Assembly (NCBI RefSeq): GCF_022846255.1
Contig: NZ_AP025682.1
Length of the DNA: 64,000 nucleotides
Source: Escherichia coli
Lineage (GTDB): Bacteria; Pseudomonadota; Gammaproteobacteria; Enterobacterales; Enterobacteriaceae
Strand: one strand, 5' to 3'
Part shown: piece after piece, positions 35,103 through 51,431 of the stretch
Numbering within the stretch: the stretch's first letter is position 1
Layout of the letters: every line of letters starts with the position of its first letter
Notes under the pieces: generated by a model
What the model was told of the DNA's origin: nothing
Database searches by the model: none
Seen by the model: the letters and a program-made list of their open reading frames with translations, nothing else
Position numbers and translations under genes: made by a program

Positions 35103-36152
35103 TTTGAAAACTGCCTGTACGGCAGTGAACAGCGCCCGCTTTTTTACCGCGTCAGCGCAGCGTTTCTAAGCTGCCTGTACGGCAGTGAACTCCCTGATTC
35201 AGTTGCGCTCCCCGACGAGCTGTTTCTAAGCTGCCTGTACGGCAGTGAACCGTTGGCGTTTCGCGGCAACAGGTTTTTCAATTTTCTAAGCTGCCTGTAC
35301 GGCAGTGAACGTAGTTTTGATTCCAGCGATAACTGCCTATTTATTTCTAAGCTGCCTGTACGGCAGTGAACGTAGTTTTGATTCCAGCGATAACTGCCTA
35401 TTTATTTCTAAGCTGCCTGTACGGCAGTGAACGATCAGGCCCGGCTTTCCCCACACGTTCGTATTTTCTAAGCTGCCTGTACGGCAGTGAACCGCCTGCC
35501 ATTCAACCTGCAAATAGTTTTCGATTTCTAAGCTGCCTGTACGGCAGTGAACGAACTGTGGCACGAGGTTGCAGGCGTAAGACTTTTCTAAGCTGCCTGT
35601 ACGGCAGTGAACGCCATCTTTGAATATAACGCCCCGATTGTGATTTTCTAAGCTGCCTGTACGGCAGTGAACCCCTACCGTTTTAATAAATGGGATTTGC
35701 ATTATTTCTAAGCTGCCTGTACGGCAGTGAACGCTGAGGTGTTTACAATGCGTGCCGTGCTGGTTTTCTAAGCTGCCTGTACGGCAGTGAACTCTGTTTT
35801 TCGTCAGCAGGATTAAACCAGGCATTTCTAAGCTGCCTGTACGGCAGTGAACTCTCATCAATTACGGGTTCGTTGGCTGGATCTTTTCTAAGCTGCCTGT
35901 ATGGCAGTGAACGTCTTCTGCGCATCCGTACCACTCACCAATGATTTCTAAGCTGCCTGTATGGCAGTGAACTTAATCGGTAACGTTGCTCTAATTCCCC
36001 CTCTTTTCTAAGCTGCCTGTATGGCAGTGAACCCAGCGAGAATTGAGGCTGTTTGCCGTGTGCTTTTCTAAGCTGCCTGTATGGCAGTGAACATAAACGC
36101 GCGCAGGTTGTTGAGGTGCTCGAGTTTCTAAGCTGCCTGTATGGCAGTGAAC
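35103..36152 (-). CRISPR. Type I-F CRISPR array A: 18 repeats, 17 spacers (16 unique)
   Basis: 28-bp repeat (RNA sense on minus strand GTTCACTGCCGTACAGGCAGCTTAGAAA) at 60-61 bp period with 32-33 bp spacers; degenerate terminal repeat at 35103..35130; five repeats at 35885..36152 carry a loop variant. Confidence 0.97.
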
Positions 36153-36423
36153 TGGAATAATAGCAGACTATCCGATTGATTTACTGTTAAAACTTACAAA
36201 ATCGCAGATTCAAACCCTTTTTCCAGACTTCAAAACAGAAATAAACAAAATCAATGAGTTACATTTCGCCCTAAAAAAAGGGTCGATTTGGTATTTCTTC
36301 AATCTCATATTTTCTGCATAGCTTTTGATAAACAATTGACCAGAACACATACGGTCATAATCTCCGTCCCGCGAACAGCGTGTTCATTGCGTAACCAAAC
36401 AAATCAATCTATATAAATTCTTC

Positions 36424-36495: not shown

Positions 36496-36583
36496 GGTGA
36501 GGTGTCCGAGTGGCTGAAGGAGCACGCCTGGAAAGTGTGTATACGGCAACGTATCCGGGGTTCGAATCCCCGCCTCACCGCCA
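36496..36583 (+). tRNA. serW: tRNA-Ser (anticodon GGA)
   Basis: 88-nt sequence GGTGAGGTGTCCGAGTGGCTGAAGG...TTCGAATCCCCGCCTCACCGCCA with long variable arm and encoded CCA. Confidence 0.93.
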
Positions 36584-36704: not shown

Positions 36705-37718
36705 CTAGTCGTAGGATACGGCAAATATGGCTTTGCTTTGGACTTCTCCAGGCTGTAGTGCTTCCTCCTTCACGCGGACATATTTCGCGGTAATCGGGAA
36801 GGTGTACTGATTCTCAATGGCCGCCATTTTAGTTAGTTTGTTCATCAGAGTATCACCCAGCTTTAACGGTGTTGTTGCGTTACCATTATAAATCTGGAAC
36901 CCAACCCCCTTAGCACCATTAAGCGATGTGTTTTTCAGAATGGTTCCACTATCATCCCATTCACCGCGCGCAACTTTAAAAGTCACTGGATTAGTCGTGA
37001 CGTTATAAACACTGTCACAATTTAAAACCAGATCTATAGAACCTGATTTCGTGTTATTGGCAGATTGCATCTCACTTACCGTTGTTTCTGGCATTCTTAT
37101 TTCGTAAATCGGTTGCGAAAAACTACAGGTTGTGGGTTTGTGTTTGATGCTAAATTCTATATTCTGAGTGTAAGAAACATCACTATTTAGTCGCCCAGTA
37201 ACCCAACATAAAAGCCATGATATGATATTATTATTGCAAGAGTTATCTGTTAGTATGCTAATAGCGGGGCGCGGGATGGTTATCTTGTCGATATTGGTGG
37301 TTATAGTATGGTCTACTTTACTCGTTGGCCCAACATATTCTGCCTTAAGAGTGAACGGTTTGGTATTTATCACATCCTGAGTGTTATATTCTTTTGGAGA
37401 AGCACCCAAGGAGTCAGTTCCAGTAGAAACAGGAAAACTACTACTCTCAAGGTTAAATTTCATAAAAATTGATTTCCCCGAATCCGACTCTCTAAGTTCA
37501 ACGATATAATCTTTTAACGGTGTTGCATAATACATTTTATCGCTTGCTGCATTACATGTGAACGTATCGACTAAGTTTGTATGAATTACAGCCGTTACCG
37601 TATCTTGTGCCATATCCAGTTCTATCGTTTGGCTTGCTGTTGTATTAGGCCCCAAGGTACATTTAGCCTGCCCCAAAAAAGGCAAAGCCAGTAAAAACAA
37701 AAACCAATATTTCTTCAT
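36705..37718 (-). CDS. Fimbrial adhesin / minor tip subunit (chaperone-usher pilus)
   Basis: ORF 36705..37739 (TTG-initiated in the track); likely ATG start at MKKYWFLFLLALPFLGQA signal peptide; last gene of the operon; AT-rich codon usage. Confidence 0.6.
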   Translation of the reverse strand: MKKYWFLFLLALPFLGQAKCTLGPNTTASQTIELDMAQDTVTAVIHTNLVDTFTCNAASDKMYYATPLKDYIVELRESDSGKSIFMKFNLESSSFPVSTGTDSLGASPKEYNTQDVINTKPFTLKAEYVGPTSKVDHTITTNIDKITIPRPAISILTDNSCNNNIISWLLCWVTGRLNSDVSYTQNIEFSIKHKPTTCSFSQPIYEIRMPETTVSEMQSANNTKSGSIDLVLNCDSVYNVTTNPVTFKVARGEWDDSGTILKNTSLNGAKGVGFQIYNGNATTPLKLGDTLMNKLTKMAAIENQYTFPITAKYVRVKEEALQPGEVQSKAIFAVSYD

Positions 37719-37729
37719 AAACAAATCCT

Positions 37730-40222
37730 TTAACGACAAATATAAACTTTATTCTCATCAATAACGTTATCAAAGGTAATAGTGCAGAATTGTTCCTGCT
37801 GTTTATTAACCGAGACGCGAATCGACGCGGGAACATCATTGGTGCGAATAAATATCCGACTTCCCTGTCCTACTAAGCCCACATTATTGCCACTTTCATC
37901 TTCAACCTCATAACCAAACGGCAACGGAGAGCCATCAGGTCGTTGGGAGATGAAATACCAGGGCTTGCGTTTATCAGTCTCAAACTGCGTCATCACTACC
38001 GCACCACGATAAGGAACGGTGTTTTTACGGTTACCCAGTAGCGCCACATCGCTTTTACTGTCGGCAATATCCAACATCAACGTATTTTCACGATACGGCG
38101 TCAGGTTGTCATAAATAGCGTAGCCTCTGCTATCCGTGGTCAAGTAACGATATCCCTGCACCGCAGCCCCCTCCAGCCCAGGTGCTTTGACAATGGCAAA
38201 CGTATCGGAAAGTCTGGGAGCCAGTGCCACCCCGTCCGACCACGCGACGAAACCGCCTTGAATATTACCGCTAACCTGTTGATATCTTTTCGACTGGCTA
38301 TAGCTGCCACCAATAGTCGCCAATGGCGCACGCCAGGTCAGGTTTCCACCTGCTGTTGTTTCGCTGCCCTGGTGTTGATGGCTCAAGTTTGCCCCGTAGC
38401 TGAACTGATCGCGGCTCCCCGCTACACCGCTGAGGCTGGTATTATTCGACCGATAGCCGTCTTTATCAAAAGTGGTCGAGTTAGAAACAAATAAATCTCG
38501 TCGTTTTTCAGTGATTCCATCGCCCCACGAGAAGGGAATTGAGAAATATAAGTTAATGCGTCTATCTTCGCGGTTATCTTCGTCGTAGGTCTGGCTAACA
38601 GACAAGGTATAACTAAGGCGTTCCCAGGAGTTCGAATAGCTGAGTTGATAATCTTTCCCTGTCCCGCTGCGTTCCCAATAATCCCGCCATTGACCGCTGA
38701 CCGACAGATATCCCCAATTTTCCGGTAATGACTGGTTTATATTTACAGAAAAGCTGTTCTTACGACCAAAATCGTACTGATAATAGTCGGCGATATCATA
38801 AACTGAGTCATCTTCTCGATTATAACTTTTCCTGTTATTTGCCCTCACGTGATCGTTAAAAGTACGATAATCTCGAGAAGAATAACGCCAGGCCGCCAGC
38901 GAAAATTGCGTTCCACTTTGAGAGAGATATTTGTTCCACGCAATCTGATAACTTTGACCATTAAACACATCACCGTTATCTTGTTCACTGTGGGAATGGG
39001 TAAAATCAACAGATACCGCACCAATCGGTGTATTCCATCCCGTGCCGAGAACAAACGATGAGTAATTATCAGACAACTGCGTGCCAGCATAGAGAGTCAG
39101 CAAATTATTAAGGCCATACTGATAGCTTCCCTGAATAAAATCTGACTGATCGCTGGCTCCCTCAATACGGCTACGTCCGACAGCAAATTCATATTTCGAA
39201 ACGCCCGGTTGCAACATATTTGGTACCGATGAATAAGGTACACGATAACGCGACACCGAACCGTCAGCTTCTTTAACGGTAACTTCCAGATCGGCACCAC
39301 CACCTGCAAGTTGCAAATCATCAATGGCGAATGGACCTGGCGGAACTTCTTTCTGGTAAACCACAAAGCCATTTTGTTCGATAGTGACAAGTGCGTTACT
39401 TTGGGCAACACCACGCACCACAGGCGTAAAATTCTGTTTAGAGTTCGGCAACATCTGCATATCGCGCCAAAGGCGTACACCGCGAAAACGCACGGAGTCA
39501 AAAACATCAGAACCGGTATACATTTCACCAGCACGCAATGTGCCAAGAATATGTGGAATTCCGCGCTCCAGATATAACGTGTTACTCTTCCATTTACCGC
39601 TGTTATCGTCACTTTTCGTATAATTGGCATTTGAATGCAACTGCCAGCCCAGCAGATTCAAACCACTATTCAGATTTAAATAGCTACTTTTATTATCTCC
39701 TCCGTGCTTATAATTACTGTAATACTGACTGGCATAATAAGAAGTATATAATGCGTTAATCCCACGATCCCATGCCTCAGGTGGAACATATCCGCGTTCA
39801 TACTCAACAACATAGGCCTGGGGTACACTCAACTTCAGGTTAAAATGCCCAATATCATAGTCAACGCTACCTCCCTGTACTGCATCCCGAAGAGGTACGC
39901 ATTCTACGCCTTTATCAATATTAATTCCTTCAGTGAGGATACCTATTTGCTTTAACTGCTCCCAAGATAAACATGTCGCATCCGGATCATCTTTAATGTC
40001 GACATTATAGTGTCCGCGCCACTGATTATTCAGGTAAACATCCATATCATAGATACCTGGCATCGGCTTATCACTATCAATATGATAGTCAGAAATTTTT
40101 TCCCCATTTAATCCGCCAATCATAAAATGGGTGTCAAATGTTTCATCTTCCGCCCATGCAAGCGACGTTGCCAACACCGACAGGATAGCCAGCGTAATAG
40201 AATTAAGTTTAGACATAATCAA
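37730..40222 (-). CDS. Fimbrial outer-membrane usher protein
   Basis: 830-aa ORF, size and composition typical of FimD/PapC ushers, between chaperone and adhesin. Confidence 0.85.
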   Translation of the reverse strand: MIMSKLNSITLAILSVLATSLAWAEDETFDTHFMIGGLNGEKISDYHIDSDKPMPGIYDMDVYLNNQWRGHYNVDIKDDPDATCLSWEQLKQIGILTEGINIDKGVECVPLRDAVQGGSVDYDIGHFNLKLSVPQAYVVEYERGYVPPEAWDRGINALYTSYYASQYYSNYKHGGDNKSSYLNLNSGLNLLGWQLHSNANYTKSDDNSGKWKSNTLYLERGIPHILGTLRAGEMYTGSDVFDSVRFRGVRLWRDMQMLPNSKQNFTPVVRGVAQSNALVTIEQNGFVVYQKEVPPGPFAIDDLQLAGGGADLEVTVKEADGSVSRYRVPYSSVPNMLQPGVSKYEFAVGRSRIEGASDQSDFIQGSYQYGLNNLLTLYAGTQLSDNYSSFVLGTGWNTPIGAVSVDFTHSHSEQDNGDVFNGQSYQIAWNKYLSQSGTQFSLAAWRYSSRDYRTFNDHVRANNRKSYNREDDSVYDIADYYQYDFGRKNSFSVNINQSLPENWGYLSVSGQWRDYWERSGTGKDYQLSYSNSWERLSYTLSVSQTYDEDNREDRRINLYFSIPFSWGDGITEKRRDLFVSNSTTFDKDGYRSNNTSLSGVAGSRDQFSYGANLSHQHQGSETTAGGNLTWRAPLATIGGSYSQSKRYQQVSGNIQGGFVAWSDGVALAPRLSDTFAIVKAPGLEGAAVQGYRYLTTDSRGYAIYDNLTPYRENTLMLDIADSKSDVALLGNRKNTVPYRGAVVMTQFETDKRKPWYFISQRPDGSPLPFGYEVEDESGNNVGLVGQGSRIFIRTNDVPASIRVSVNKQQEQFCTITFDNVIDENKVYICR

Positions 40223-40230
40223 TCCCTGAT

Positions 40231-40911
40231 CTATTTGACGGTTTTTACTTTTTCACTCAAATAGTTCCCATGGTCATCAATCAGCGTAATTGTATATTGA
40301 TTGATGGCTAAGGCTGTGGTGATAGTCTTATCTGACCAGGGGGCTAATAACAACGTTTCGTGATTTATTTTTCCACTTCCCATCAACTCAGGAATAGTTA
40401 TCCAGTTTGCGGAGTTGTTTTTGATATTAATACCACCATTGGCATGCTTAATGCTCAGACGACGAAAACTTTCTTTATCTACGCCAGTAAGTCCCTCTGG
40501 GCGGTAGATAAATTTAATACGATTCTGCATGGCGAATTTTATGCCATTCTTATCTTCTAATTCGGGGCAATTAGGTGGGATGTCTAGCACATTAAGGAAG
40601 AATAGGCTTTCGCGATCTTTTGGTAGTGTATTCGCCAATTTTTTGATTTTGAGTTGTTGCCCTTCCCCCCCTTTTACGTGAGCGACCGGTGGCGTCAACA
40701 CAAACGGAACATGAATTTTTTCTGGGGGTAGACTGGTATCGCCATCATCAATCCATGACTGAACCAGGGCGCTACGATTACCTTCATTCATTAACTGAAC
40801 GGTAATCTCTTTTTTCTTTTCTGGATAAATAACACGAGTGCCGTAGATATAGACACCACTCCACGCAGGCGTGACTATGCCGGCCAGCAAGAAGGCTATT
40901 AATTTTTTCAT
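40231..40911 (-). CDS. Periplasmic pilus chaperone (PapD/FimC-like)
   Basis: 226-aa ORF with signal peptide MKKLIAFLLAGIVTPAWSG and chaperone-like N-terminal region. Confidence 0.8.
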   Translation of the reverse strand: MKKLIAFLLAGIVTPAWSGVYIYGTRVIYPEKKKEITVQLMNEGNRSALVQSWIDDGDTSLPPEKIHVPFVLTPPVAHVKGGEGQQLKIKKLANTLPKDRESLFFLNVLDIPPNCPELEDKNGIKFAMQNRIKFIYRPEGLTGVDKESFRRLSIKHANGGINIKNNSANWITIPELMGSGKINHETLLLAPWSDKTITTALAINQYTITLIDDHGNYLSEKVKTVK

Positions 40912-40964
40912 TAAACAATCCTTGTTTGAGAAATCGGCGACCGAAGCCGCCGATAAACACGATA

Positions 40965-41513
40965 TTAATCTGTCACGACAGTCATTGTCAGAGCAGAGTT
41001 AACCGGGCCAGCAGTCACCGCATCACCTGATTGCGCGTATTTCGCACTGAAATTTAGTGTATATTCATTAGAGCTGTTTTTTTCTAACTCAATACTTTTA
41101 TCACCGTCAATCTGTTGAGATTGCCCATCTGCACTCTCATAGTAGACAGCAAAACCAGCACCATTTGGGTTTGCCACAGTATTAATGGTGATATCGCTAC
41201 GATTTGCATCAAACTGACTTCTGGAAAACGTAATTCTGGGAGTCTCATCTCCTGTACATTTGACCGTCAGCGGTACAGTTGTTTTATTTGAATAACCATC
41301 ATAAATATAACCAGCGCTCTTACCATCAAATTGATCAGCACCAATATCGTTCATAGCAATAGTAGCCTGGCTATTTCCGATAAATTGACAAGTAGTTCCA
41401 ACCACATTACCGGTAATAACTAACTCACCCTGTTCACTCCCCTCCTCTGCAAAAGCCCCTGCACTCATAAAAAGAGAAGATAATACTGCAACTGCAATAA
41501 TTGAACGTTTCAT
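40965..41513 (-). CDS. Major fimbrial subunit
   Basis: 182-aa ORF with signal peptide and Thr/Ser/Gly-rich pilin-like composition; first gene of the operon, preceded by about 380 bp of AT-rich DNA. Confidence 0.75.
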   Translation of the reverse strand: MKRSIIAVAVLSSLFMSAGAFAEEGSEQGELVITGNVVGTTCQFIGNSQATIAMNDIGADQFDGKSAGYIYDGYSNKTTVPLTVKCTGDETPRITFSRSQFDANRSDITINTVANPNGAGFAVYYESADGQSQQIDGDKSIELEKNSSNEYTLNFSAKYAQSGDAVTAGPVNSALTMTVVTD

Positions 41514-41892: not shown

Positions 41893-42447
41893 TCAAAACC
41901 AGGGAATAGTGGCGGTTGCGCTTAATCCGTAACTACTAAATTCCCCTTTAACCGGTTCAGTAAGCAAATCACCATGACGGATAAACAGCTTGAACTGCTG
42001 CTGACTCGACAAACTATTCATATTAAGAAAGGGTAAATCGGTCCGCTGTTCAGCCTGCGTCGCCAGTCGCTCAATCGCCTGTTCTTCAGTTAGCCAGCCT
42101 TTTTTCACTGAACGCCTTAACAGACGCTGAGGGTTACTTTTTACCTGTACACGACTTACGACTCGCCAGCCTTTAATTTCAGGTACTAGCGTGACAGGCG
42201 AACATTGGCAGTAATCAGTAAGCCCTTTACGCCACGTAGAGGCTTCAAGTTCTTGCAATGCGGGGGCACTGCCGTGCAAGCGTAAACGCGCTCCCGGCGT
42301 AACATTCACGTCCGGGAAACTCACGCCGATATCACCTTGCCCTCTTGCACCTAATGCCCGATGCAATTTGGCAAATAACGCCGCCATCAACATTTCGCTC
42401 GAAAATTCAGGATCTGGCAGAACGCGGATCTCAAGGTAGTGATCCAT
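41893..42447 (-). CDS. cas6f: Type I-F CRISPR endoribonuclease Cas6f (Csy4)
   Basis: ORF 41893..42489; start placed at MDHYLEIRVLPDPEF; last gene of cas operon. Confidence 0.9.
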   Translation of the reverse strand: MDHYLEIRVLPDPEFSSEMLMAALFAKLHRALGARGQGDIGVSFPDVNVTPGARLRLHGSAPALQELEASTWRKGLTDYCQCSPVTLVPEIKGWRVVSRVQVKSNPQRLLRRSVKKGWLTEEQAIERLATQAEQRTDLPFLNMNSLSSQQQFKLFIRHGDLLTEPVKGEFSSYGLSATATIPWF

Positions 42448-42457
42448 TGGCAGCTCC

Positions 42458-43459
42458 TTATTCCGATTTCTCACCAAAGACACCGCCACGGATCAGCACA
42501 GCCATCACGTAGCGCTGCTGATCAACGTCTGGTTTCATCCCTTTAGTCACCCAATTGTCCAGTAAGGTATAAAAGTCGAGTTTTTCTTTCGGTTGACGGC
42601 AGGCCACACCGCGACTGGTTACAGAACCGTAAGGTTCCACGGCTATAGCCCCCAATTCATCAACCTTTGGATGCCAGGTATCAATGGTACGTAAAGCATT
42701 GCCAATCTTCTGAGAGTGAATACCGGCAATGCCAGCCACCTGGTATAACACGCGACTTTTACTACTGTTGCTGTCGAGTACCAGCTCCTGCGACGGAAAA
42801 ACTTCTTGCCCGGCACCAAGACGAACCTGCGCTTCAACGGTAAGCATCACCCACTCTTTTGCGCTTAATCCTTGCTCTATAATGGCCGCCAGCTGCGTGA
42901 CCGCTGCCTGTCCCTGGTCAAATTGACGTAAAGAGAAGTCATGGCTGTTAAAAGTCCAGGAAGTGTCGTTAGCAGTAACTTTCACCTGGATCTGCTCAGC
43001 ACCAATGCGGTTGCGCCACAGAAAACGACCATTTGCCAGATTCAGCGCATAGCGAAGCGCCAGCTCTTTAAAGCCATGTTCGCTGATGTAACCTTCAATG
43101 ACCCCGGAAAGCGCCTCCTGGTAAGCCATATCATTACATACTGACGGTGTGGATAAATTACCCAGCACACGCAGCGTAAACACCACCTTTAACGTATCCG
43201 CATCTACCGGAAGCGAAGCCACATCCACCCGTTGCAGGTTAGCTTTTTGGATTTCAGCATCCAGTTTTGTGGAGTCACTGGTAATCGTATTTTTCAAGCG
43301 ATTAGAGATAGTTCCGCGAACCGCTTTCTCCTGAATCTCAATGGGTTGCCATACATTTCCTTGCCAGTTACCTGCGTACATTACCGCGTCAGATGTTGCC
43401 AGTTTGCGCTCAAATGCCAGTACCGATGCCGTTTTTATTACTACAGGAGCCTTTGCCAT
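42458..43459 (-). CDS. cas7f: Type I-F Cascade backbone subunit Cas7f (Csy3)
   Basis: 333-aa [36 protein letters not shown]..., position in operon. Confidence 0.9.
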
Positions 43460-43469
43460 AATTATGTCC

Positions 43470-44393
43470 TTATTCTAAATCGTCATATTCATTAAAAGTA
43501 AAATCATCACCAGCTGGCATTGCCGAGCAATAGTAGCCAGTGTCCGTTGTGCGGTAACGCCACATCAGCGGTTGCAAGTCAGTTATGCGATGTAATCCGC
43601 GCCATTCGCCGATGCCATATACCGCTTCGGCAAAAGCAAATGGCGTCACGGTGTCGCGCGCATTTTCAACTTCACCGGGTGCGTAAACAGGAGAAATGCG
43701 TTGGTAGCCACACATTAACGGTACCAGGAAACCAGGCATTGGCTTCGGCTGATATGTCCATTTTGCGCTGTTGTCTTCTGCCGGAGATTCGGCCTGATAT
43801 TTAACGGCAGCAAAATCAAGCCAGGCATCCAGCAATGAGATGTCGGGATGTTGTTGGTGATGTTCAGCCAGCCATTCACTGCGATCGTAAAGCGCATAGC
43901 CAGGCATTAAACGCCAGATGATTTTACGCAGTTGCTTTTCATCTTCAGGCGCATGAAAAAGCTGTGGTTCGCGCATGTCAACAATGCTGCCGCCCGCCAG
44001 TTTGTGGCTCTGGCAGAGCATTTTCAGATGGTCACACAGAGCTTTTCTGCCATATTCACCATTGGTGATTTCCCCTTCACATTCAATGAGCAAAGATACC
44101 GTCAGATGCATACGGCCCTCTTCATTGAACGAAGCGGTTTTACCTTCTCTGGTTAGTGGGTTACGGGTGAGAGCAAACTGAAAATACCGCCCAGAGCTAT
44201 ATGCCTGAATATGTTGTTCATGGCTAACTACCGCGCAACCGTCAAAACTTACGCCAAAATCATCCGCCACTTTGCGAGAAAGCGCATGAACATAGCCGAG
44301 AAAATGGGTCATCGCCGGGAATCCCCAGGTCAACCCGGAGACGGCGTTAGCGTTTTCGATACGTATATGGGGTAACAAGAGCAGATAACTCAT
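43470..44393 (-). CDS. cas5f: Type I-F Cascade subunit Cas5f (Csy2)
   Basis: 307-aa ORF, operon position between csy1 and csy3, overlaps csy1 stop by 4 bp. Confidence 0.88.
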
Positions 44394-45697
44394 TTCAGCG
44401 CCTCCTGCAAAACAGCTTCCATTTCACGCATCCGTTGAGCGAACAGAGACTGGCTGCGCCATTCTCTTTGCTCGACAGCGCCCACGTCGAAACTGGATTT
44501 TTTCAGGCGATAGTTGAGCCAGCGCGCAAAATCATCGGCCACCGCCCCCTGCCAGTCGTTTTTCTCCCGCTCCAGTTTGAAAACCTCATCGGACAGGCTT
44601 CGCCACGGATCCAGCCAAAGCTGCTGATGGCGAGGTAAATCTTGCGATTGCGCTGACCATCCCTGCCATTTTTCTTGCTGAAAAGCGGATGCCTGCATGA
44701 ACAGCAGATCGATCAACTCATCAATATATTTCGCCCGCGCAGTTCGGATATGAACATTATTTATGTCAACCTTCAACAGGTAAGTCATCCGGGCGATAAT
44801 GCCCGAAGCCGCCCTATTGAAATCGCCGCGTAAGGCAAAAATACTGAGCATGTTTTGTGGTGCGCGATCCAGCGTCGCCCAGGTAGGCGGCATTGACGGC
44901 AACAGCCAGACGCGCCCCCCACGCACACTATTGAGCAATGAAATATTTTGCGGTTTTGTGCCTCCGAAATGCATTTCAGCAAGATTCGGGAAACGAATAT
45001 CTGGCTGTGAGTGCCATTTACCTGCTTTGTGCGCTTCGCGAATGGCTTTCGATTCCTCACTAAAGCGCACGGCGGTTAGCTTTTCATACATCGCCTGCGC
45101 CAGTGAACTGGAAAACAGTGGGCATAAGAGGTGATAACCATCCGCAACAGGGAAATAGATTTGTTTTGCCAGTTTATGGCTGGCAGGCCGTCCAGTTGTC
45201 CATGCCTGGCTAAACCCAGCTACCCACTGCTCCAGTTGCGCTTTATCCTCTGCAAACGTACTTAATGCCTGATAATCACCACGCTTCAGGCTGGCAAGCA
45301 GTGAATCTCCGTTCACATCAGTTTGTAGCAACTTTGCGACGTCAAGTGCAGCGGCGTTACCAATCGCGTCAGTAGCGACATTCGCCAACGATGCCGTGTT
45401 TAAATAGCTTTCGTTAGCGGAGGTTTCCAGATAAAAGCTACTGGCTTTAGAATCACCATGACTGAATTTAGCGCCATGAGTGACTAATTTGATTTGCCCG
45501 GCACGCTTTGCCGCATCCGTTAACCAGTGACGAGGCAGGTAGCGTGCCTCGAGTTCCTGCCGCTCCTGAGCGATGACGCTGGCATCCTCGCCCTGTTCCA
45601 GTCGCTTTGTTGCTTCTTTTTCAAAGGCCTCGACTTTGGGTTGCCTTCGCGAAGCGATATAGTCAGTGATAAATTGTATTAGCGCCGTTTTTTCCAT
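44390..45697 (-). CDS. cas8f: Type I-F Cascade large subunit Cas8f (Csy1)
   Basis: 435-aa ORF, AAGGAG RBS upstream of ATG, first gene of csy cluster. Confidence 0.88.
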   Translation of the reverse strand: MEKTALIQFITDYIASRRQPKVEAFEKEATKRLEQGEDASVIAQERQELEARYLPRHWLTDAAKRAGQIKLVTHGAKFSHGDSKASSFYLETSANESYLNTASLANVATDAIGNAAALDVAKLLQTDVNGDSLLASLKRGDYQALSTFAEDKAQLEQWVAGFSQAWTTGRPASHKLAKQIYFPVADGYHLLCPLFSSSLAQAMYEKLTAVRFSEESKAIREAHKAGKWHSQPDIRFPNLAEMHFGGTKPQNISLLNSVRGGRVWLLPSMPPTWATLDRAPQNMLSIFALRGDFNRAASGIIARMTYLLKVDINNVHIRTARAKYIDELIDLLFMQASAFQQEKWQGWSAQSQDLPRHQQLWLDPWRSLSDEVFKLEREKNDWQGAVADDFARWLNYRLKKSSFDVGAVEQREWRSQSLFAQRMREMEAVLQEALK

Positions 45698-45743
45698 CTC
45701 GGCTCCTTTCGTTAATCCATCAAATTGAAGTTGCTCCCTGACT

Positions 45744-45827
45744 TCACTGAAAAATCTCCGTAGCCCAACCAGGCTTCAGTACAACGACGCATACAGCAAA
45801 AGGGACAACACCCGTGGTGATAATCAT
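45744..45827 (-). CDS. Hypothetical 27-aa hydrophobic mini-ORF (MIITTGVVPFAVCVVVLKPGWATEIFQ); candidate Cre-repressed toxin or upstream leader peptide
   Basis: ATG preceded by AGGTGAG at 6-nt spacing; not in ORF track (too short); lies between the Cre-like target site and csy1. Confidence 0.2.
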   Translation of the reverse strand: MIITTGVVPFAVCVVVLKPGWATEIFQ

Positions 45828-45837
45828 GGATAGCTCA

Positions 45838-45871
45838 CCTAGAGGTATCTACGTTTTAATCTAGTAAAATC
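45838..45871 (+). promoter_or_regulatory. Putative Cascade binding site (CC PAM + 11-nt seed match to the psi-spacer), overlapping a putative minus-strand promoter and RBS
   Basis: cc-tagaggtatct at 45838..45850 is identical to the first 11 nt of the psi-spacer at 45969..45979; I-F PAM is 5'-CC on the non-target strand. Confidence 0.45.
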
Positions 45872-45940
45872 CATGCAATAACCAATAGTGATATTACCAT
45901 GCATGAAATATTTGCCACACAATGATTTAAAAACTAACAT

Positions 45941-46014
45941 TCACGCACTGCCGTTGGCAGCTTAGAAATAGAGGTATCTCCGGATACGGACTTGTAAACT
46001 GCCGTACAGGCAGC
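45941..46014 (+). ncRNA. Degenerate mini-CRISPR (psiR-psiS-psiR), CreA/CreR-like crRNA-resembling RNA gene
   Basis: psiR1 tcacgcactgccgttggcagcttagaaa (intact 8-nt 5' handle, shortened loop); 25-nt psi-spacer; psiR2 gtaaactgccgtacaggcagc (intact Cas6f hairpin, lacks 3' handle); orientation opposite to cas genes; possible promoter TTGCCA-17-TAACAT at 45912..45940. Confidence 0.5.
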
Positions 46015-46024
46015 CCGCGCCCCT

Positions 46025-49000
46025 TCACGGGGCGCGGTACACACCTAACCAGGGGTGATAACGCCAGTCATCGACCACATCTTCTTCACTGACGGGTACT
46101 CTCACCTCAGCAAACTTTTCCCCAACGCTTGCTATCTCACAACCTTGCTTATCAGCTAAATTCAACAAAACGTGTTGGTAATCCATCACGCCCCAGCAAG
46201 CGACACCGCTGGCGCATCTCACCTCTTCTCGCCTGAAATTCCCTTGCGCTTTACGCTCGTTGTCGCCCGTACGGGAATAGAAACGCGCTTCGCTTTCTTC
46301 ATCATCCATATGCAGAAAAAATACCGCCTCCGGCAAAGGGGAATAACGAAATGGCGTCTGGCGCTGTATCCAGCCGTTCCAGCTTAGCGGTGCACGCCAC
46401 CATTGCGCCGCCACCACATGTTTGCTTTTACTGCTCATCAATTCGGCGGATAAACGACTATGTTCTAGCTCCGCCAGTTTGTTGGCATTATTGGCAGACA
46501 GGATCCGCGGCAAGGCGTTAATCGTCCGGTAGTCCGCGATCGGAATCAGTTCGCAAATATCGTGGCTATTCAGCAAGTGTTCTTTTGTTTCGAAACCAGG
46601 CTTACAAAATGCGGGGGCTTTTTTCTGCAATGATTTGATATTGCTACGCAAAATAACCAGATTCTCACTGGTCGGCACATTTCTACGGTGGCGCTGAATA
46701 CGTCCGGCAAATTGAATTATCGAACGCATGGAGCTTGGTTCGATAATTCCCCAATCCGCATCCCAGTCACGCCCCACTTCTATAACCGATGTCCCCAACA
46801 CCACAAACAGATGGTGCGATTCCGGACGGTTATGTAAGGCATCTGCGATATCTTCGTTGTTCCAGAAATCGAGTTCGTTATGACGGGTAAAAGCGCGGTC
46901 CAGTCGCTTCTCAATATCTGAACGCACCGCCAGCGGGTGTCGGGAGTGGTAAACACAATAATGAATACAAACATTTTCTGGTGAAGGAATGGCAATCAGG
47001 GCTTTGGTCACTGCAACCAGTGGATTGATATTCGCGAAGCGCACCAGGCCCAGCGAAACGGTTTTACCGCTTTCGTGTAGCTGGCGATGCGCCTGATGCA
47101 ACTTCAGCATTTGCGTATGCACCGTCTGGGCCACACTTTCGGTAACATCCTGGATTGCAACTGATGCAGATGAAATCGAAGCAACACGCCCGAAATGCAG
47201 CCGCTCTTTTTCAGCCAGCATTACCGCCCGCCTGGCAACAAATTTTGTATGCGCATCGCGAAAGGCCGCTCCATCGCTAATTTGCGTGGCATCAGCATCG
47301 TTTTCGTCAAACCAGGCACAGCAAATATTGACGGGCCTGCCGTTGGTACCACAAGACGCCTGCCACATTTTACGCCCGGCAAGATAAGCCGCGAACAGCG
47401 CCTGAATCAGGCCTGGCGGAAGCGTCGCCGAAGAGAGTAACACCCGCGTTCCCAGCATCCCGGCCCAGTTCATCAAACGACATACCGCATGAAGATCAGC
47501 AATATCAAAGTCGTCGGGTTCGTCGAGCACTAAATCGCTGGTTAACAGACGCAACATCGCCGGAAGCTGTTTCCCGCCACGCACACCCTCGGTCGCGGAA
47601 ATAAGATGATCAATTGTCGCGACCAGAATCGGCGCGCTCACTAACGCCTTAAGTTTGCTGTCATCCTTCAACCATTTTTCCAGCGCCCCGGTATGCAGGC
47701 TGCCTTCGTACTTAACGAACTGTTGCTCCTCTGCCGGCGACTCTTGCGAGGCACTTCCACAATCATTGTCTATTTTTTCCTGCTGCCAGAGCTGTTTAAC
47801 TGCCGCCGAACCAATTAATACCGCCAGCTCATCCTCACCGAGTCCAAGTCGACTACGCAGAGCATCGCCGGTTTGCAAAGTCAGCGTACGCAATCCCAGC
47901 GCGACGGTAAAACGGCACCCTTCCCGCTCATCGGCAAGCGCATACATAATGCGGGCGTTCGCAAAGGTTTTACCGCACCCCGTCGAGGCCATATTAACGC
48001 CGAAAAATCCCTCCTCCCGGCTTCGTTCACGTAACGCTCGCGCCACATCCGAGGCTTTATCCTGCCAGCGATATTTCGCATCTGTAGCTCGCTGGCTAAA
48101 ACCTTTATGTCGGGCAATTGCCGGAAGAGAAGCCCGTGTGCGCATCAGCTGCCGCCCAAGCAAAAACGCATGATGTGCGACGCCGACCAGGTGCTCGTCC
48201 ACCCGTTGTTTGAGTGCGCCACTTTGCCTATCGCTATTTGCCCAGACGATATAATCCGGCTCCTGCCATTTTTGCTGCGCATCGCTTGAGGAATAGTAAT
48301 GATCGGCAAGCATCAGGCAAAAACGCGCCATATGTGAGGGGAACAACTGTTCCATCAGCCCGTATGTCTTTAAACCGAGCGCGTTACTTGCCCGGCGGGA
48401 AATCTGATGTGCTTTTTCTCGCCAGCTAGCACTCTGAAGCGGTGTTCCAGCCGGAAATTGCCAGACGTGCGCAAAATCCTGTTGTAACCAGTCATCTCTG
48501 CGGTGGTTAACGGCATTCCAGTCAGCATTAAGTTGCCTTTCCAGCCAACTTTCACACCCTTTGCAAGATTGTTCCGGTTGTGGCGAAAGATTCTCCGGAA
48601 TTCGATGATGGGAAAGGATCAGCCAACCTACCGTTTTGGCTAGCGGTTGCAGCGAAGTAAATGGGCTATCTGAAAATTGAGGCGTGTCTTTTAGCAGGCG
48701 TTCCAGAATCGCAGATTCATCATCTGCCGTAAGTTCGCCAAGCTTCGCCAGCCACACATCGTCGGGCCGATCACCGACAAACGCCTGAAAGAGCCGCAGT
48801 GAGATCCATTCATGTCGGTATGGTTGATAACTGCGGGCATTCTTTTGGGTCAGGCTTTGCTGAAAGCTGCGTCCGGATTTTCCAAAATCATGAAATAACC
48901 CGGCGATGGCTGCCAGCAGCGCAATGCTTTCCGCACATTGCCAGCGGTTTTCTTCCTTGTTCACCAGGCTGGTTTGCGTTGTGCGATTTGTGGGAACGCG

Positions 49001-49258
49001 CCCCTGAGCATTAAAACGACGAATATTACCCACAATCCACATCAACTCAATTTGTCCATTCTTCTTTAGCCAGTGACATGCCACTGCGGTATTTCGCCTG
49101 GCAGTTTTGCGCAGTAAACGGCGGAGTGTATTAACGCCTTCCAGAGTAATCACTGTTTGCCATGCGGCATCACCTGTACGTTCAGCAAACTGATCAATAA
49201 TACGGCAGCTTTCCACGCGGGCGTTTTTTGTACAGCGCGAGATAATCAGAACATTCAT
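46025..49258 (-). CDS. cas3: Type I-F Cas2-Cas3 fusion (Cas2 domain + HD nuclease + SF2 helicase)
   Basis: 1077-aa ORF; N-terminal Cas2-like region; HD motif LLAAIAGLFHDFGK; overlaps cas1 stop by 4 bp. Confidence 0.92.
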   Translation of the reverse strand: MNVLIISRCTKNARVESCRIIDQFAERTGDAAWQTVITLEGVNTLRRLLRKTARRNTAVACHWLKKNGQIELMWIVGNIRRFNAQGRVPTNRTTQTSLVNKEENRWQCAESIALLAAIAGLFHDFGKSGRSFQQSLTQKNARSYQPYRHEWISLRLFQAFVGDRPDDVWLAKLGELTADDESAILERLLKDTPQFSDSPFTSLQPLAKTVGWLILSHHRIPENLSPQPEQSCKGCESWLERQLNADWNAVNHRRDDWLQQDFAHVWQFPAGTPLQSASWREKAHQISRRASNALGLKTYGLMEQLFPSHMARFCLMLADHYYSSSDAQQKWQEPDYIVWANSDRQSGALKQRVDEHLVGVAHHAFLLGRQLMRTRASLPAIARHKGFSQRATDAKYRWQDKASDVARALRERSREEGFFGVNMASTGCGKTFANARIMYALADEREGCRFTVALGLRTLTLQTGDALRSRLGLGEDELAVLIGSAAVKQLWQQEKIDNDCGSASQESPAEEQQFVKYEGSLHTGALEKWLKDDSKLKALVSAPILVATIDHLISATEGVRGGKQLPAMLRLLTSDLVLDEPDDFDIADLHAVCRLMNWAGMLGTRVLLSSATLPPGLIQALFAAYLAGRKMWQASCGTNGRPVNICCAWFDENDADATQISDGAAFRDAHTKFVARRAVMLAEKERLHFGRVASISSASVAIQDVTESVAQTVHTQMLKLHQAHRQLHESGKTVSLGLVRFANINPLVAVTKALIAIPSPENVCIHYCVYHSRHPLAVRSDIEKRLDRAFTRHNELDFWNNEDIADALHNRPESHHLFVVLGTSVIEVGRDWDADWGIIEPSSMRSIIQFAGRIQRHRRNVPTSENLVILRSNIKSLQKKAPAFCKPGFETKEHLLNSHDICELIPIADYRTINALPRILSANNANKLAELEHSRLSAELMSSKSKHVVAAQWWRAPLSWNGWIQRQTPFRYSPLPEAVFFLHMDDEESEARFYSRTGDNERKAQGNFRREEVRCASGVACWGVMDYQHVLLNLADKQGCEIASVGEKFAEVRVPVSEEDVVDDWRYHPWLGVYRAP

Positions 49259-50244
49259 TGATCAGCCTTAGCCAGTGCCTGGGCAGTTTCCTGCAAAGAG
49301 GTGATCATGACATCCAGCGCATCCGTTTGTTGAAAGATATTGATGCAGCGTAGACGAAACTCCTGGGCATCTTCACCTGCCATCGCGGCGATAAATGCTT
49401 GCGGCATCACAAGGGCATCTTTAATCAGATCGGCAAGGTCAAAAACCAGCCCGCCGCGACGTGTTTTACCGTGCATTACTGCTAAACCGTGCGGGATCCC
49501 GGTTACCCACGCCGCCACTGCTGCCAGTCCATAAGCCAGATAATTCCCTTGATCGAGGAAGCGGTTGGCCATATCAATACCACCGCCCCGTTTTGCGCGA
49601 GTGAAATCGCCATACCCCACTGTTTGACTGACCATTTTGTATAACGCTTTAGTCAATTTGGCCTCTACGAGCATAAGCTGCGTATGGTTTTCTGCCGCGT
49701 CTATTTCTTCACGAGTACGATTCAGGAGGGTATGCAGCGCATTAACATCAGGTTGAAATGCGTGTTCACGCTGCATTTTCGAGCTGGACCAGTGCTTATC
49801 GATATGTGTCAGGCGGATTAACTGAAAACGTTTCGCGGCGGCAAGTCGTTTATCTTCAGCAAACCAAAAAGAAACCCACTGCTGGAGATACTCTGTAGGG
49901 CGATATTCACTTTGTGGGCTGAGCCAGGAGACATCAACATCCACTTCATTTGCCGAATACAGCGGCGTGCCATCCGTACCACAAAAGCCCACCATCACCC
50001 CGGCATGAGCAAATTCACGCATCGCCGCCTGAGTAACGGAAGTTCCCATTCCCAACATCAATGCCGTGGTATTCGCAATGGGGATATTCCAGTAGTACGA
50101 CTCTTTACCTTCGCTGGTGACATACTCCACCCGCCCACCATTCACCTGTACCCGGCATTTTTCCAGATAATAAATATTGGCGCGTTTGGAGTGGAGAATG
50201 GTTTTGAGATCGGAAGGCGTGAGGTAATTCGAAGACATAAACAC
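49255..50244 (-). CDS. cas1: Type I-F CRISPR integrase Cas1
   Basis: 329-aa ORF upstream of cas2-3, first gene of cas operon. Confidence 0.9.
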   Translation of the reverse strand: MFMSSNYLTPSDLKTILHSKRANIYYLEKCRVQVNGGRVEYVTSEGKESYYWNIPIANTTALMLGMGTSVTQAAMREFAHAGVMVGFCGTDGTPLYSANEVDVDVSWLSPQSEYRPTEYLQQWVSFWFAEDKRLAAAKRFQLIRLTHIDKHWSSSKMQREHAFQPDVNALHTLLNRTREEIDAAENHTQLMLVEAKLTKALYKMVSQTVGYGDFTRAKRGGGIDMANRFLDQGNYLAYGLAAVAAWVTGIPHGLAVMHGKTRRGGLVFDLADLIKDALVMPQAFIAAMAGEDAQEFRLRCINIFQQTDALDVMITSLQETAQALAKADQ

Positions 50245-50400: not shown

Positions 50401-51268
50401 ATTATCGTATTGTGAAACTACCTGTACGGCAGTGAACCGCGTAGAGCTGCTGCGCAAACTCGACACTCATTTCTAAGCTGCCTGTACGGCAGTGAACCCT
50501 CGTTCATCAAGGTGCTCAAAGCTTGACATTTTCTAAGCTGCCTGTACGGCAGTGAACGCCAAGAACGCTGTTACCGCTTCCCTGTGCGCTTTCTAAGCTG
50601 TCTGTACGGCAGTGAACCCAGATTGCCGAAAACATCGCCTTTGATGAACTTTCTAAGCTGCCTGTACGGCAGTGAACGGGCGCGGTGTCGTCCAGGATTT
50701 GGAGGCAACTTTCTAAGCTGCCTGTACGGCAGTGAACAACAGGTCGTCCAGCGCATCCCACGGATCCGGTTTCTAAGCTGCCTGTACGGCAGTGAACATC
50801 GCGCACACGCAGTCTTACATTTGCCACCATTTCTAAGCTGCCTGTACGGCAGTGAACGAGTGATTATTATGGCCCAATCGGACGATGACTTTCTAAGCTG
50901 CCTGTACGGCAGTGAACCTCCACCCGTGGTAAGCAGAAAGGGCCGTAACTTTCTAAGCTGCCTGTACGGCAGTGAACTGATCTGTTGCGATACTGACAGT
51001 ATCGTTAGCTTTCTAAGCTGCCTGTACGGCAGTGAACTGTTTTTTTGACGTGTAAACCGGGCGGTTTTTTTTCTAAGCTGCCTGTACGGCAGTGAACATC
51101 TCCGTATTTACTGTCCTCCCTGCTATCCATTTCTAAGCTGCCTGTACGGCAGTGAACTGCCAGTTTCGAAAACGTGCAGCAAATGCAGTTTTCTAAGCTG
51201 CCTGTACGGCAGTGAACTACCTTAATTTGAAATGAACCTTTGCCGCATATTTCTAAGCTGCCTGTACG
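50401..51268 (-). CRISPR. Type I-F CRISPR array B: 15 repeats, 14 spacers
   Basis: same 28-bp repeat at exact 60-bp period, 32-bp spacers; degenerate terminal repeat at 50401..50428 next to cas1; repeat at 50581 has a stem substitution. Confidence 0.97.
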
Positions 51269-51431
51269 GCAGTGAACTCAAATACTACACGTTTAGCTCG
51301 TTGTTGATAAAGAAAAATCATCTCATTTTCCTGCTGCCACCCTTTTTTATTCTTACCTTCCAGCACCATTAATTATCAACAACTTACCTTCACCTCCAAA
51401 AATAGGGTTTTCACCGTTCCCCCCTACAAAC

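Follow-up and report, generated by a model that had tools for sequence, protein, structure and literature searches.

Introduction

The clpA-infA region is a known chromosomal site of type I-F CRISPR-Cas systems in Escherichia (PMC3903273). The type I-F systems described at this site in the E. coli strains LF82 and ED1a, as well as that of Pectobacterium atrosepticum, possess the same repeat, GTTCACTGCCGTACAGGCAGCTTAGAAA, as the locus analyzed here, together with 32-nt spacers and a CC protospacer-adjacent motif (PAM). The E. coli and P. atrosepticum systems also display the same arrangement, in which two arrays flank cas1-cas2/3-csy1-3-cas6f, at the same chromosomal site (PMC3903273).

Spacer acquisition in type I-F is polarized, with one new repeat synthesized per spacer (PMC4678832). 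For type I-E, adaptation drops by at most 3-fold when the sequence between the inverted repeats is changed, and repeats bearing a deletion or an insertion are duplicated in their altered form (PMC5039180). The endoribonuclease Cas6f, for its part, reads the major groove of the repeat stem (PMC5965381). In this article, the window, that is, the whole 64,000-nucleotide stretch of DNA taken from contig NZ_AP025682.1, is examined with respect to a single-base loop variant shared by the leader-proximal repeats of one of its two arrays, designated array A.

Organization of the Type I-F Locus

The six genes cas1f, cas2-3f, csy1, csy2, csy3, and cas6f all score above the NCBIfam equivalog cut-offs (6/6) and form one operon at 41893-50244, which is situated between the two arrays, with array A lying between serW and infA and array B adjoining clpA (Table 1). 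A search of the window for repeat copies with no more than 3 mismatches recovered 18 copies in array A and 14 in array B (50470-51277), the latter having an additional degenerate repeat at 50410 beyond those 14. All 33 repeats of the two arrays exceed the gathering score of the Rfam family CRISPR-DR4 (RF01317), which is 35 bits, and 15 of the 17 spacers of array A are 32 nt long, the other two being 33 nt. By its genes and repeats, array A is part of a type I-F CRISPR-Cas locus that is both complete and conventional. Tn7-like type I-F3 CRISPR transposons carry tniQ/tns genes, lack cas1 and cas2-3, and have special guides flanked by divergent repeats. The composition of the locus differs from theirs in that cas1f and cas2-3f are present and the interval between the arrays contains cas and fimbrial genes only; in contrast with the atypical repeats of type I-F3, the variants of array A differ by one loop base and are located at the leader end.

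A tRNA-Ser gene is found at 36496-36583, and a Yeh-like chaperone-usher fimbrial operon (36705-41513), encoding a YehD-like subunit, a chaperone, an usher, and a putative adhesin, is inserted between cas6f and serW. This operon was present in every conspecific locus fetched and absent from the type I-F locus of all 5426 complete E. coli genomes. The fact that the cas genes of the window are only 94.4% identical to their E. coli counterparts (about 5.6% divergent), combined with a fimbrial insert unmatched in complete E. coli, indicates that the host belongs to an Escherichia lineage outside E. coli proper, for which E. fergusonii or a cryptic clade would be plausible. Elsewhere in the window, a full-length match to the sRNA STnc130 (Rfam RF02084, 142.5 bits) was identified at 20267-20401, which is unrelated to the array variant.

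Table 1. Positions of array A, its repeats and spacers, and the surrounding type I-F features in the window
Feature	Position	Strand	Remark
CRISPR array A	35103..36152	-	18 repeats of 28 nt, 17 spacers, period 60-61 nt
Degenerate terminal (trailer) repeat	35103..35130	-	GTTCACTGCCGTACAGGCAGTTTTCAAA, GUACA loop, beside infA
Twelve canonical repeats and spacers A06-A16	35163..35852	-	GUACA loops
Spacer A05	35853..35884	-	boundary: variant repeat upstream, canonical repeat downstream
Repeat R05	35885..35912	-	oldest AUACA copy, 3' hairpin of crRNA A04
Spacer A04	35913..35944	-	AUACA on both sides, common to L032; placed after the mutation and before the lineage split
Repeat R04	35945..35972	-	AUACA, 3' hairpin of crRNA A03
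Spacers A01-A03 and intervening repeats	35973..36124	-	window/L018 lineage only; absent from L032
Repeat R03	36005..36032	-	AUACA, 3' hairpin of crRNA A02
Repeat R02	36065..36092	-	AUACA, 3' hairpin of crRNA A01
Repeat R01	36125..36152	-	AUACA, adjoins leader
Leader of array A	36153..36420	-	AT-rich
cas6f (csy4)	41893..42447	-	endoribonuclease expected to cut repeat hairpins
csy3, csy2, csy1	42458..45697	-	Csy/Cascade subunits
cas2-3f and cas1f	46025..50244	-	adaptation, interference
CRISPR array B	50410..51277	-	15 repeats, all GUACA loops, internal control for the ancestral repeat; leader from 51278 onward, beside clpA

The Loop Variant of Array A

In the RNA sense, which corresponds to the minus strand, the five leader-proximal repeats of array A read GTTCACTGCCATACAGGCAGCTTAGAAA, the sole difference from the canonical repeat (12 copies) being the substitution of A for G at position 11, the first loop nucleotide, which appears as C to T on the plus strand. 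The loop is consequently AUACA in 5 of the 18 repeats and GUACA in 13, with the trailer repeat counted among the latter. The repeats were cross-checked by direct reading, a repeat finder, and a mismatch search, all of which agree, and these confirm the coordinates, the counts of 5 and 13, and the GUACA-to-AUACA change that an earlier sequence-only reading had given. The variant repeats score 45.8 bits against CRISPR-DR4 and the canonical ones 50.1 bits. If 5 variants were placed at random among 18 repeats, the probability of all of them falling at the leader end would be 1/8568.

Deamination at a Dcm hotspot was considered as the source of the C-to-T change and ruled out, as no CCWGG site occurs in the repeat. 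A separate feature of array A is the tandem duplication of a 61-nt repeat-spacer unit at 35283-35404, as a result of which spacers A13 and A14 are identical (33 nt each). The contigs L018 and L032, described below, both stop inside this duplication, which is consistent with a real duplication that breaks short-read assemblies.

The assignment of the leader end is supported by several types of observation. The matches to the Rfam repeat family lie on the minus strand, which is the strand of the cas genes. A degenerate repeat is present at the low-coordinate end of both arrays, namely at the infA end of array A and at the cas1 end of array B. The 70 nt of leader A nearest the repeat are identical across conspecific strains, and motifs of this leader are also found in the leader of array B and in an E. 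coli leader. The only two spacers with perfect protospacers, A12 and A05, are both preceded by 5'-CC in the minus-strand orientation, so that the PAM contributes two data points only. Because the repeat strand, the degenerate-repeat end, the leader conservation, and the 5'-CC PAMs all agree, the variant block of array A is leader-proximal, and its placement at the leader end in the sequence-only reading is borne out by the Rfam strand, the conserved leader, and the PAM at two protospacers matching at 32/32. A consensus promoter scan of the array A leader on the array strand found no sigma-70-like promoter.

Relatives and the Order of Spacer Uptake

Relatives with the same locus were recovered by exact-protein look-ups with the fimbrial genes, and their arrays were parsed by script. 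Seven conspecific strains (L013-L017, L020, and L022), which are 91-98% identical to the window over the aligned locus segments outside the arrays, carry GUACA in every repeat of both arrays, and their spacers are entirely different. Because array B and both arrays of all seven strains contain GUACA throughout, the AUACA variant is evidently derived, and the finding runs counter to the notion that it might be the ancestral form, which the earlier reading had named as grounds for abandoning its interpretation.

The variant repeats are also present in two separate assemblies, L018 (ENA ERZ929318) and L032 (ENA ERZ17811667). L018, a metagenome contig, differs from the window at 4 of 15176 bases and has the same A01-A13 array with the same five variant repeats. 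L032, a contig of 3x coverage, shows 2 differences in 4110 flanking bases outside the array, and its array is arranged as leader-AUACA:x-AUACA:A04-AUACA:A05-GUACA:A06-GUACA:A07-GUACA:A12-GUACA:A13. It thus has the same boundary between variant and canonical repeats as the window and shares spacers A04-A07 with it; A01-A03 are absent, and its own leader-end spacer, x, stands in their place with AUACA repeats on both sides. In neither relative are the variants scattered, the other outcome named beforehand as contradictory: the block is identical in L018, and it is contiguous with the same boundary in L032. An internal deletion of four units, removing spacers A08-A11, was also noted in L032 (4111-4559).

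Since the window has A01-A03 where L032 has x, all of them flanked by AUACA, both lineages continued spacer uptake after the mutation, with each new unit copying AUACA. Even if L032 had deleted A01-A03, x would still represent a leader-end addition copying AUACA. From the comparison of the units of the window and L032, acquisition would accordingly be polarized, with new units entering next to the leader and the first repeat being duplicated. What these array comparisons demonstrate is the sequence pattern, its orientation, the derived state of the variant, and the inheritance of AUACA by new units at the leader end.

No relative sharing A05 or A06 with a canonical repeat upstream, as expected of a split before the mutation, was present among the relatives found. 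Scanning JGI metagenomes with spacer A06 and its repeat flanks gave no match and hence no pre-mutation relative, and further exact-protein look-ups (with a TTG-start fimbrial ORF, a spurious ORF of 162 aa lying within the array, and the L018 counterpart of the latter) returned nothing new. When the 5426 complete E. coli genomes were queried with the array, with the variant block, and with the spacers by themselves, none of them proved to share the array; the matches obtained were repeat-driven, orphan mini-arrays, or protospacers. As no pre-mutation relative was found, the origin of the variant within array A is reconstructed rather than observed.

Distribution of the Variant in Other Arrays

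Genome and metagenome collections were scanned for the exact variant repeat, which was found in several types of arrangement. It occurs as a single internal copy in L001, L004, L008, L040, L041, and L052; as a leader-end block in L047 and in L002, the latter from Providencia alcalifaciens with 17 copies and a full type I-F operon adjacent; and as the only repeat of the array in L046 (37 copies), L044, L045, L049, and L010. An array of E. coli E69 also holds AUACA repeats. Among 318 non-terminal type I-F repeats, a sample biased by the fact that the fetched loci were partly chosen for position 11, substitutions are concentrated mainly at loop positions 11-14.

Certain arrays exhibit less regular patterns. 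In Providencia rettgeri RB151 (L003 6905-7895) and Enterobacter sp. R1 (L007 32-505), AUACA, AUGCA, and GUACA repeats are interleaved, with the array of the latter following the order A A G A A G G G. The AUACA repeat was also detected in 58 complete E. coli genomes. In the two that were examined, ECONIH4 (L011 2447-2594) and C3 (L012 2445-2532), it is the single AUACA repeat of a very small orphan array next to clpA, no cas genes being present within the 5-kb stretch fetched for each. The first repeat of ECONIH4 is canonical and the second is AUACA, an order that simple leader-end templating fails to explain. Because the patterns of Enterobacter sp. R1, RB151, and ECONIH4 defy the simple model, recombination, deletion, or reversion (back-mutation) also acts on arrays of this kind.

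Proposed History of the Variant Block and Alternative Explanations

The block of array A is very probably explained by a mutation at the leader end that was copied by four later acquisitions. In the proposed sequence of events, the C-to-T change on the plus strand (G11 to A) would have arisen in R05 while R05 was the first repeat and A05 the newest spacer, either just after the integration of A05 or during its repair synthesis, a gap-filling error giving the same pattern. Cas1-Cas2/3 integrates every new spacer where the leader meets the first repeat, and in the standard model the two strands of that repeat each template one daughter repeat, so that a mutation in it would pass to all later ones. 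Each later acquisition would then yield a further AUACA repeat, with A04 taken up first, followed by A03, A02, and A01 in the lineage of the window; the lineages would have split after A04, and the L032 lineage would have taken up x independently. We infer both the exact moment of the mutation and its functional neutrality. The distribution of spacers, with A04 predating the split, A03-A01 added in the window lineage, and x added in L032, fits the original proposal of a mutation in the first repeat followed by about four acquisitions.

The block might alternatively have been brought in from outside, the segment consisting of the leader and A01-A05 with AUACA repeats being imported by homologous recombination from an AUACA strain or array instead of mutating within array A. 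Escherichia CRISPR arrays do exchange segments (PMC3903273), AUACA is found in other Escherichia arrays, such as the orphan mini-arrays of the 58 E. coli genomes and the array of E69, and the interspersed patterns of L003, L007, and L011 require recombination or reversion. Such an import is nevertheless considered unlikely, given that neither array of the seven conspecific strains contains AUACA and no conspecific donor is seen, and that A01-A05 occur in no genome or contig other than the near-identical L018 and L032. Moreover, under import, x and A01-A03 would still be later leader-end additions copying AUACA, which leaves the main inference of the sequence-only reading standing. A sequencing or assembly error, as well as five independent mutations, can be regarded as effectively excluded: apart from the general difficulty of assembling repeats nothing speaks for an artifact, the same pattern is found in three independent assemblies (the window, L018, and L032), and independent mutation would demand five identical changes at exactly the five leader-most positions, with the placement probability given above.

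A further explanation holds that the loop change is not neutral, with AUACA being favored, for instance through a change in the binding or turnover of Cas6f or in the amount of crRNA, and the block resulting from selection or gene conversion and not from passive copying. The recurrence of G11 to A in Providencia, Acinetobacter, Enterobacter, Serratia, Chimaeribacter, and Escherichia, including the takeover of whole arrays, would be in line with this view, which is judged very unlikely for several reasons. The recurrence is inflated by ascertainment, the loci having been found through a search for the variant; within the repeat, the loop shows the least constraint in the biased sample of 318; C to T is the most frequent of spontaneous changes; and the predicted hairpin differs by no more than 0.8 kcal/mol. 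Gene conversion, in addition, would not end cleanly at one boundary common to two lineages. A sweep of G11A through type I-F arrays, whether because Cas6f binds or releases the hairpin differently, because crRNA abundance shifts, or because repeat-mimicking RNA anti-CRISPRs act with a different strength, is likewise hardly to be expected; were G11A non-neutral, the newest four crRNAs would behave unlike the older ones.

Copying of a leader-end mutation, the preferred explanation, gives the variant a modest practical value as an internal clock of array A, separating four post-mutation acquisitions from the older spacers. Between the window and L032, four gained spacers and the loss of four spacers in one event are set against 2 SNPs in 4.1 kb of flanking sequence, indicating that array turnover outpaces flanking mutation. 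In these relative terms the recent adaptation activity proposed at the outset holds, and the type I-F system of the window was competent for adaptation recently in relation to the divergence of the strains.

The Variant Hairpin and Cas6f Processing

Both the stem (CUGCC/GGCAG) and the 8-nt 3' handle remain intact in the variant, and the predicted folds of both repeats have the same pairing, with a 5-bp stem, a pentaloop, and an 8-nt handle, at -8.6 kcal/mol for the canonical repeat and -7.8 kcal/mol for the variant. Only crRNAs A01-A04 would bear the variant hairpin, since that of A05 comes from the canonical repeat R06. The Cas6f of the window is clearly homologous to Csy4 of Pseudomonas aeruginosa PA14 (E = 2e-48), the repeat hairpin of which has the same CUGCC/GGCAG 5-bp stem, pentaloop, and 8-nt handle; the entries 2XLI/2XLJ/2XLK and 4AL5-7 are solved complexes of the PA14 repeat hairpin with Csy4/Cas6f. 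The loops differ, being GUAUA in PA14, GUACA in the canonical repeat of the window, and AUACA in its variant. In the Csy4-RNA structure of Haurwitz et al. 2010, G11 and A15 reportedly form a sheared pair in the loop, the bases of which are said not to be read by the protein; G11A would abolish this pair.

Given that the 5-bp stem is kept and that the AUACA repeat recurs in other arrays, up to whole arrays of it, a strong effect on Cas6f is unlikely, and the comparative and folding data together suggest that any effect is at most small. As the variant alters neither the 5-bp stem nor the 8-nt 3' handle, crRNAs A01-A04 would most likely still be processed and loaded. The existence of blocks and whole arrays of AUACA in some hosts indicates that the variant loop is probably compatible with type I-F function there; extending this tolerance to the Cas6f of the window is indirect, because the Cas6f proteins beside AUACA-only arrays are just 31-34% identical to it.

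A distinct type of change is observed in array B, where repeat 12 (50590-50617) has a lone stem mutation, GGCAG to GACAG, with which the predicted hairpin is lost (-2.2 versus -8.6 kcal/mol). On the predicted structures, this stem mutation is more likely than the loop variant of array A to hamper Cas6f processing of the neighboring crRNA. Comparable single defective repeats were also seen in the arrays of conspecific strains.

Targets of the Spacers

Spacer A12 (35433-35464) matches a SprT-like gene over 32/32 positions with a 5'-CC PAM. Its protospacer is carried by 91 plasmids, 89 of which are typed as conjugative, with the one examined belonging to IncN, and the hosts of these plasmids include Escherichia, Klebsiella, Salmonella, Citrobacter, and Proteus. 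Spacer A05 likewise has a 32/32 match with a 5'-CC PAM, to a lambdoid prophage of E. coli STEC384, in whose early region the target gene, annotated as a type I restriction endonuclease, is located between cI/cro-like genes and gam/exo. Hits outside arrays A and B in complete E. coli genomes consist only of the protospacers of A12 and A05 and a 29-nt overlap with A10.

With regard to that overlap, 29 nt of spacer A10 (35553-35584) recur unchanged in a type I-E spacer that E. coli 2013C-4282 and WL297 carry in their queE-ygcE array, the two spacers being offset by about 3 nt (L037 1500-1531). A type I-F and a type I-E system, each in a different species, have here drawn on one and the same site of a mobile element. 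Spacer x of L032 has a 28/32 match to Ayreon-like Escherichia siphophages, in their gene for the small terminase subunit, with CA rather than CC at the PAM position.

Sensitive BLAST against phages and plasmids, 28-mer seeds in E. coli genomes, and exact matching in IMG/VR revealed no target for spacers A01-A04, so that these acquisitions can be dated in relative terms only. A check for self-targeting that allowed up to 6 mismatches found no match to any spacer of array A or B in the rest of the window.

Comparison with Known Systems

The locus of the window is distinguished from the type I-F systems of E. coli by cas genes 94.4% identical to theirs, by the fimbrial operon, by its own spacer array, and by the five G11A repeats. 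In terms of array growth, the window and L032 behave in the same way as systems in which the rule that the first repeat serves as template has been established, with altered repeats being copied as altered and changes between the inverted repeats being tolerated (type I-E, Goren et al. 2016, PMC5039180; type I-B, Wang et al. 2016, PMC4872114). The type I-E and type I-B cases involved engineered plasmid arrays, whereas array A represents a spontaneous mutation in a chromosomal type I-F array, recognized by comparison only. The window and L032 together provide a clean natural illustration that the leader-adjacent repeat serves as the template for new type I-F repeats.

The 28-nt variant repeat is present in identical form in P. 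alcalifaciens PAL-1, P. rettgeri RB151, and Acinetobacter metagenome-assembled genomes. In PAL-1, the 17-copy AUACA block adjoins the leader, older loop variants occupy the trailer side, and the full type I-F operon is adjacent. These systems belong to other genera, with Cas6f proteins only 31-34% identical to that of the window, and in them AUACA is dominant or fixed, unlike the window, where it accounts for only 5 of 18 repeats. Set beside them, the block in array A is an already understood by-product of CRISPR array growth, and nothing suggests a new mechanism.
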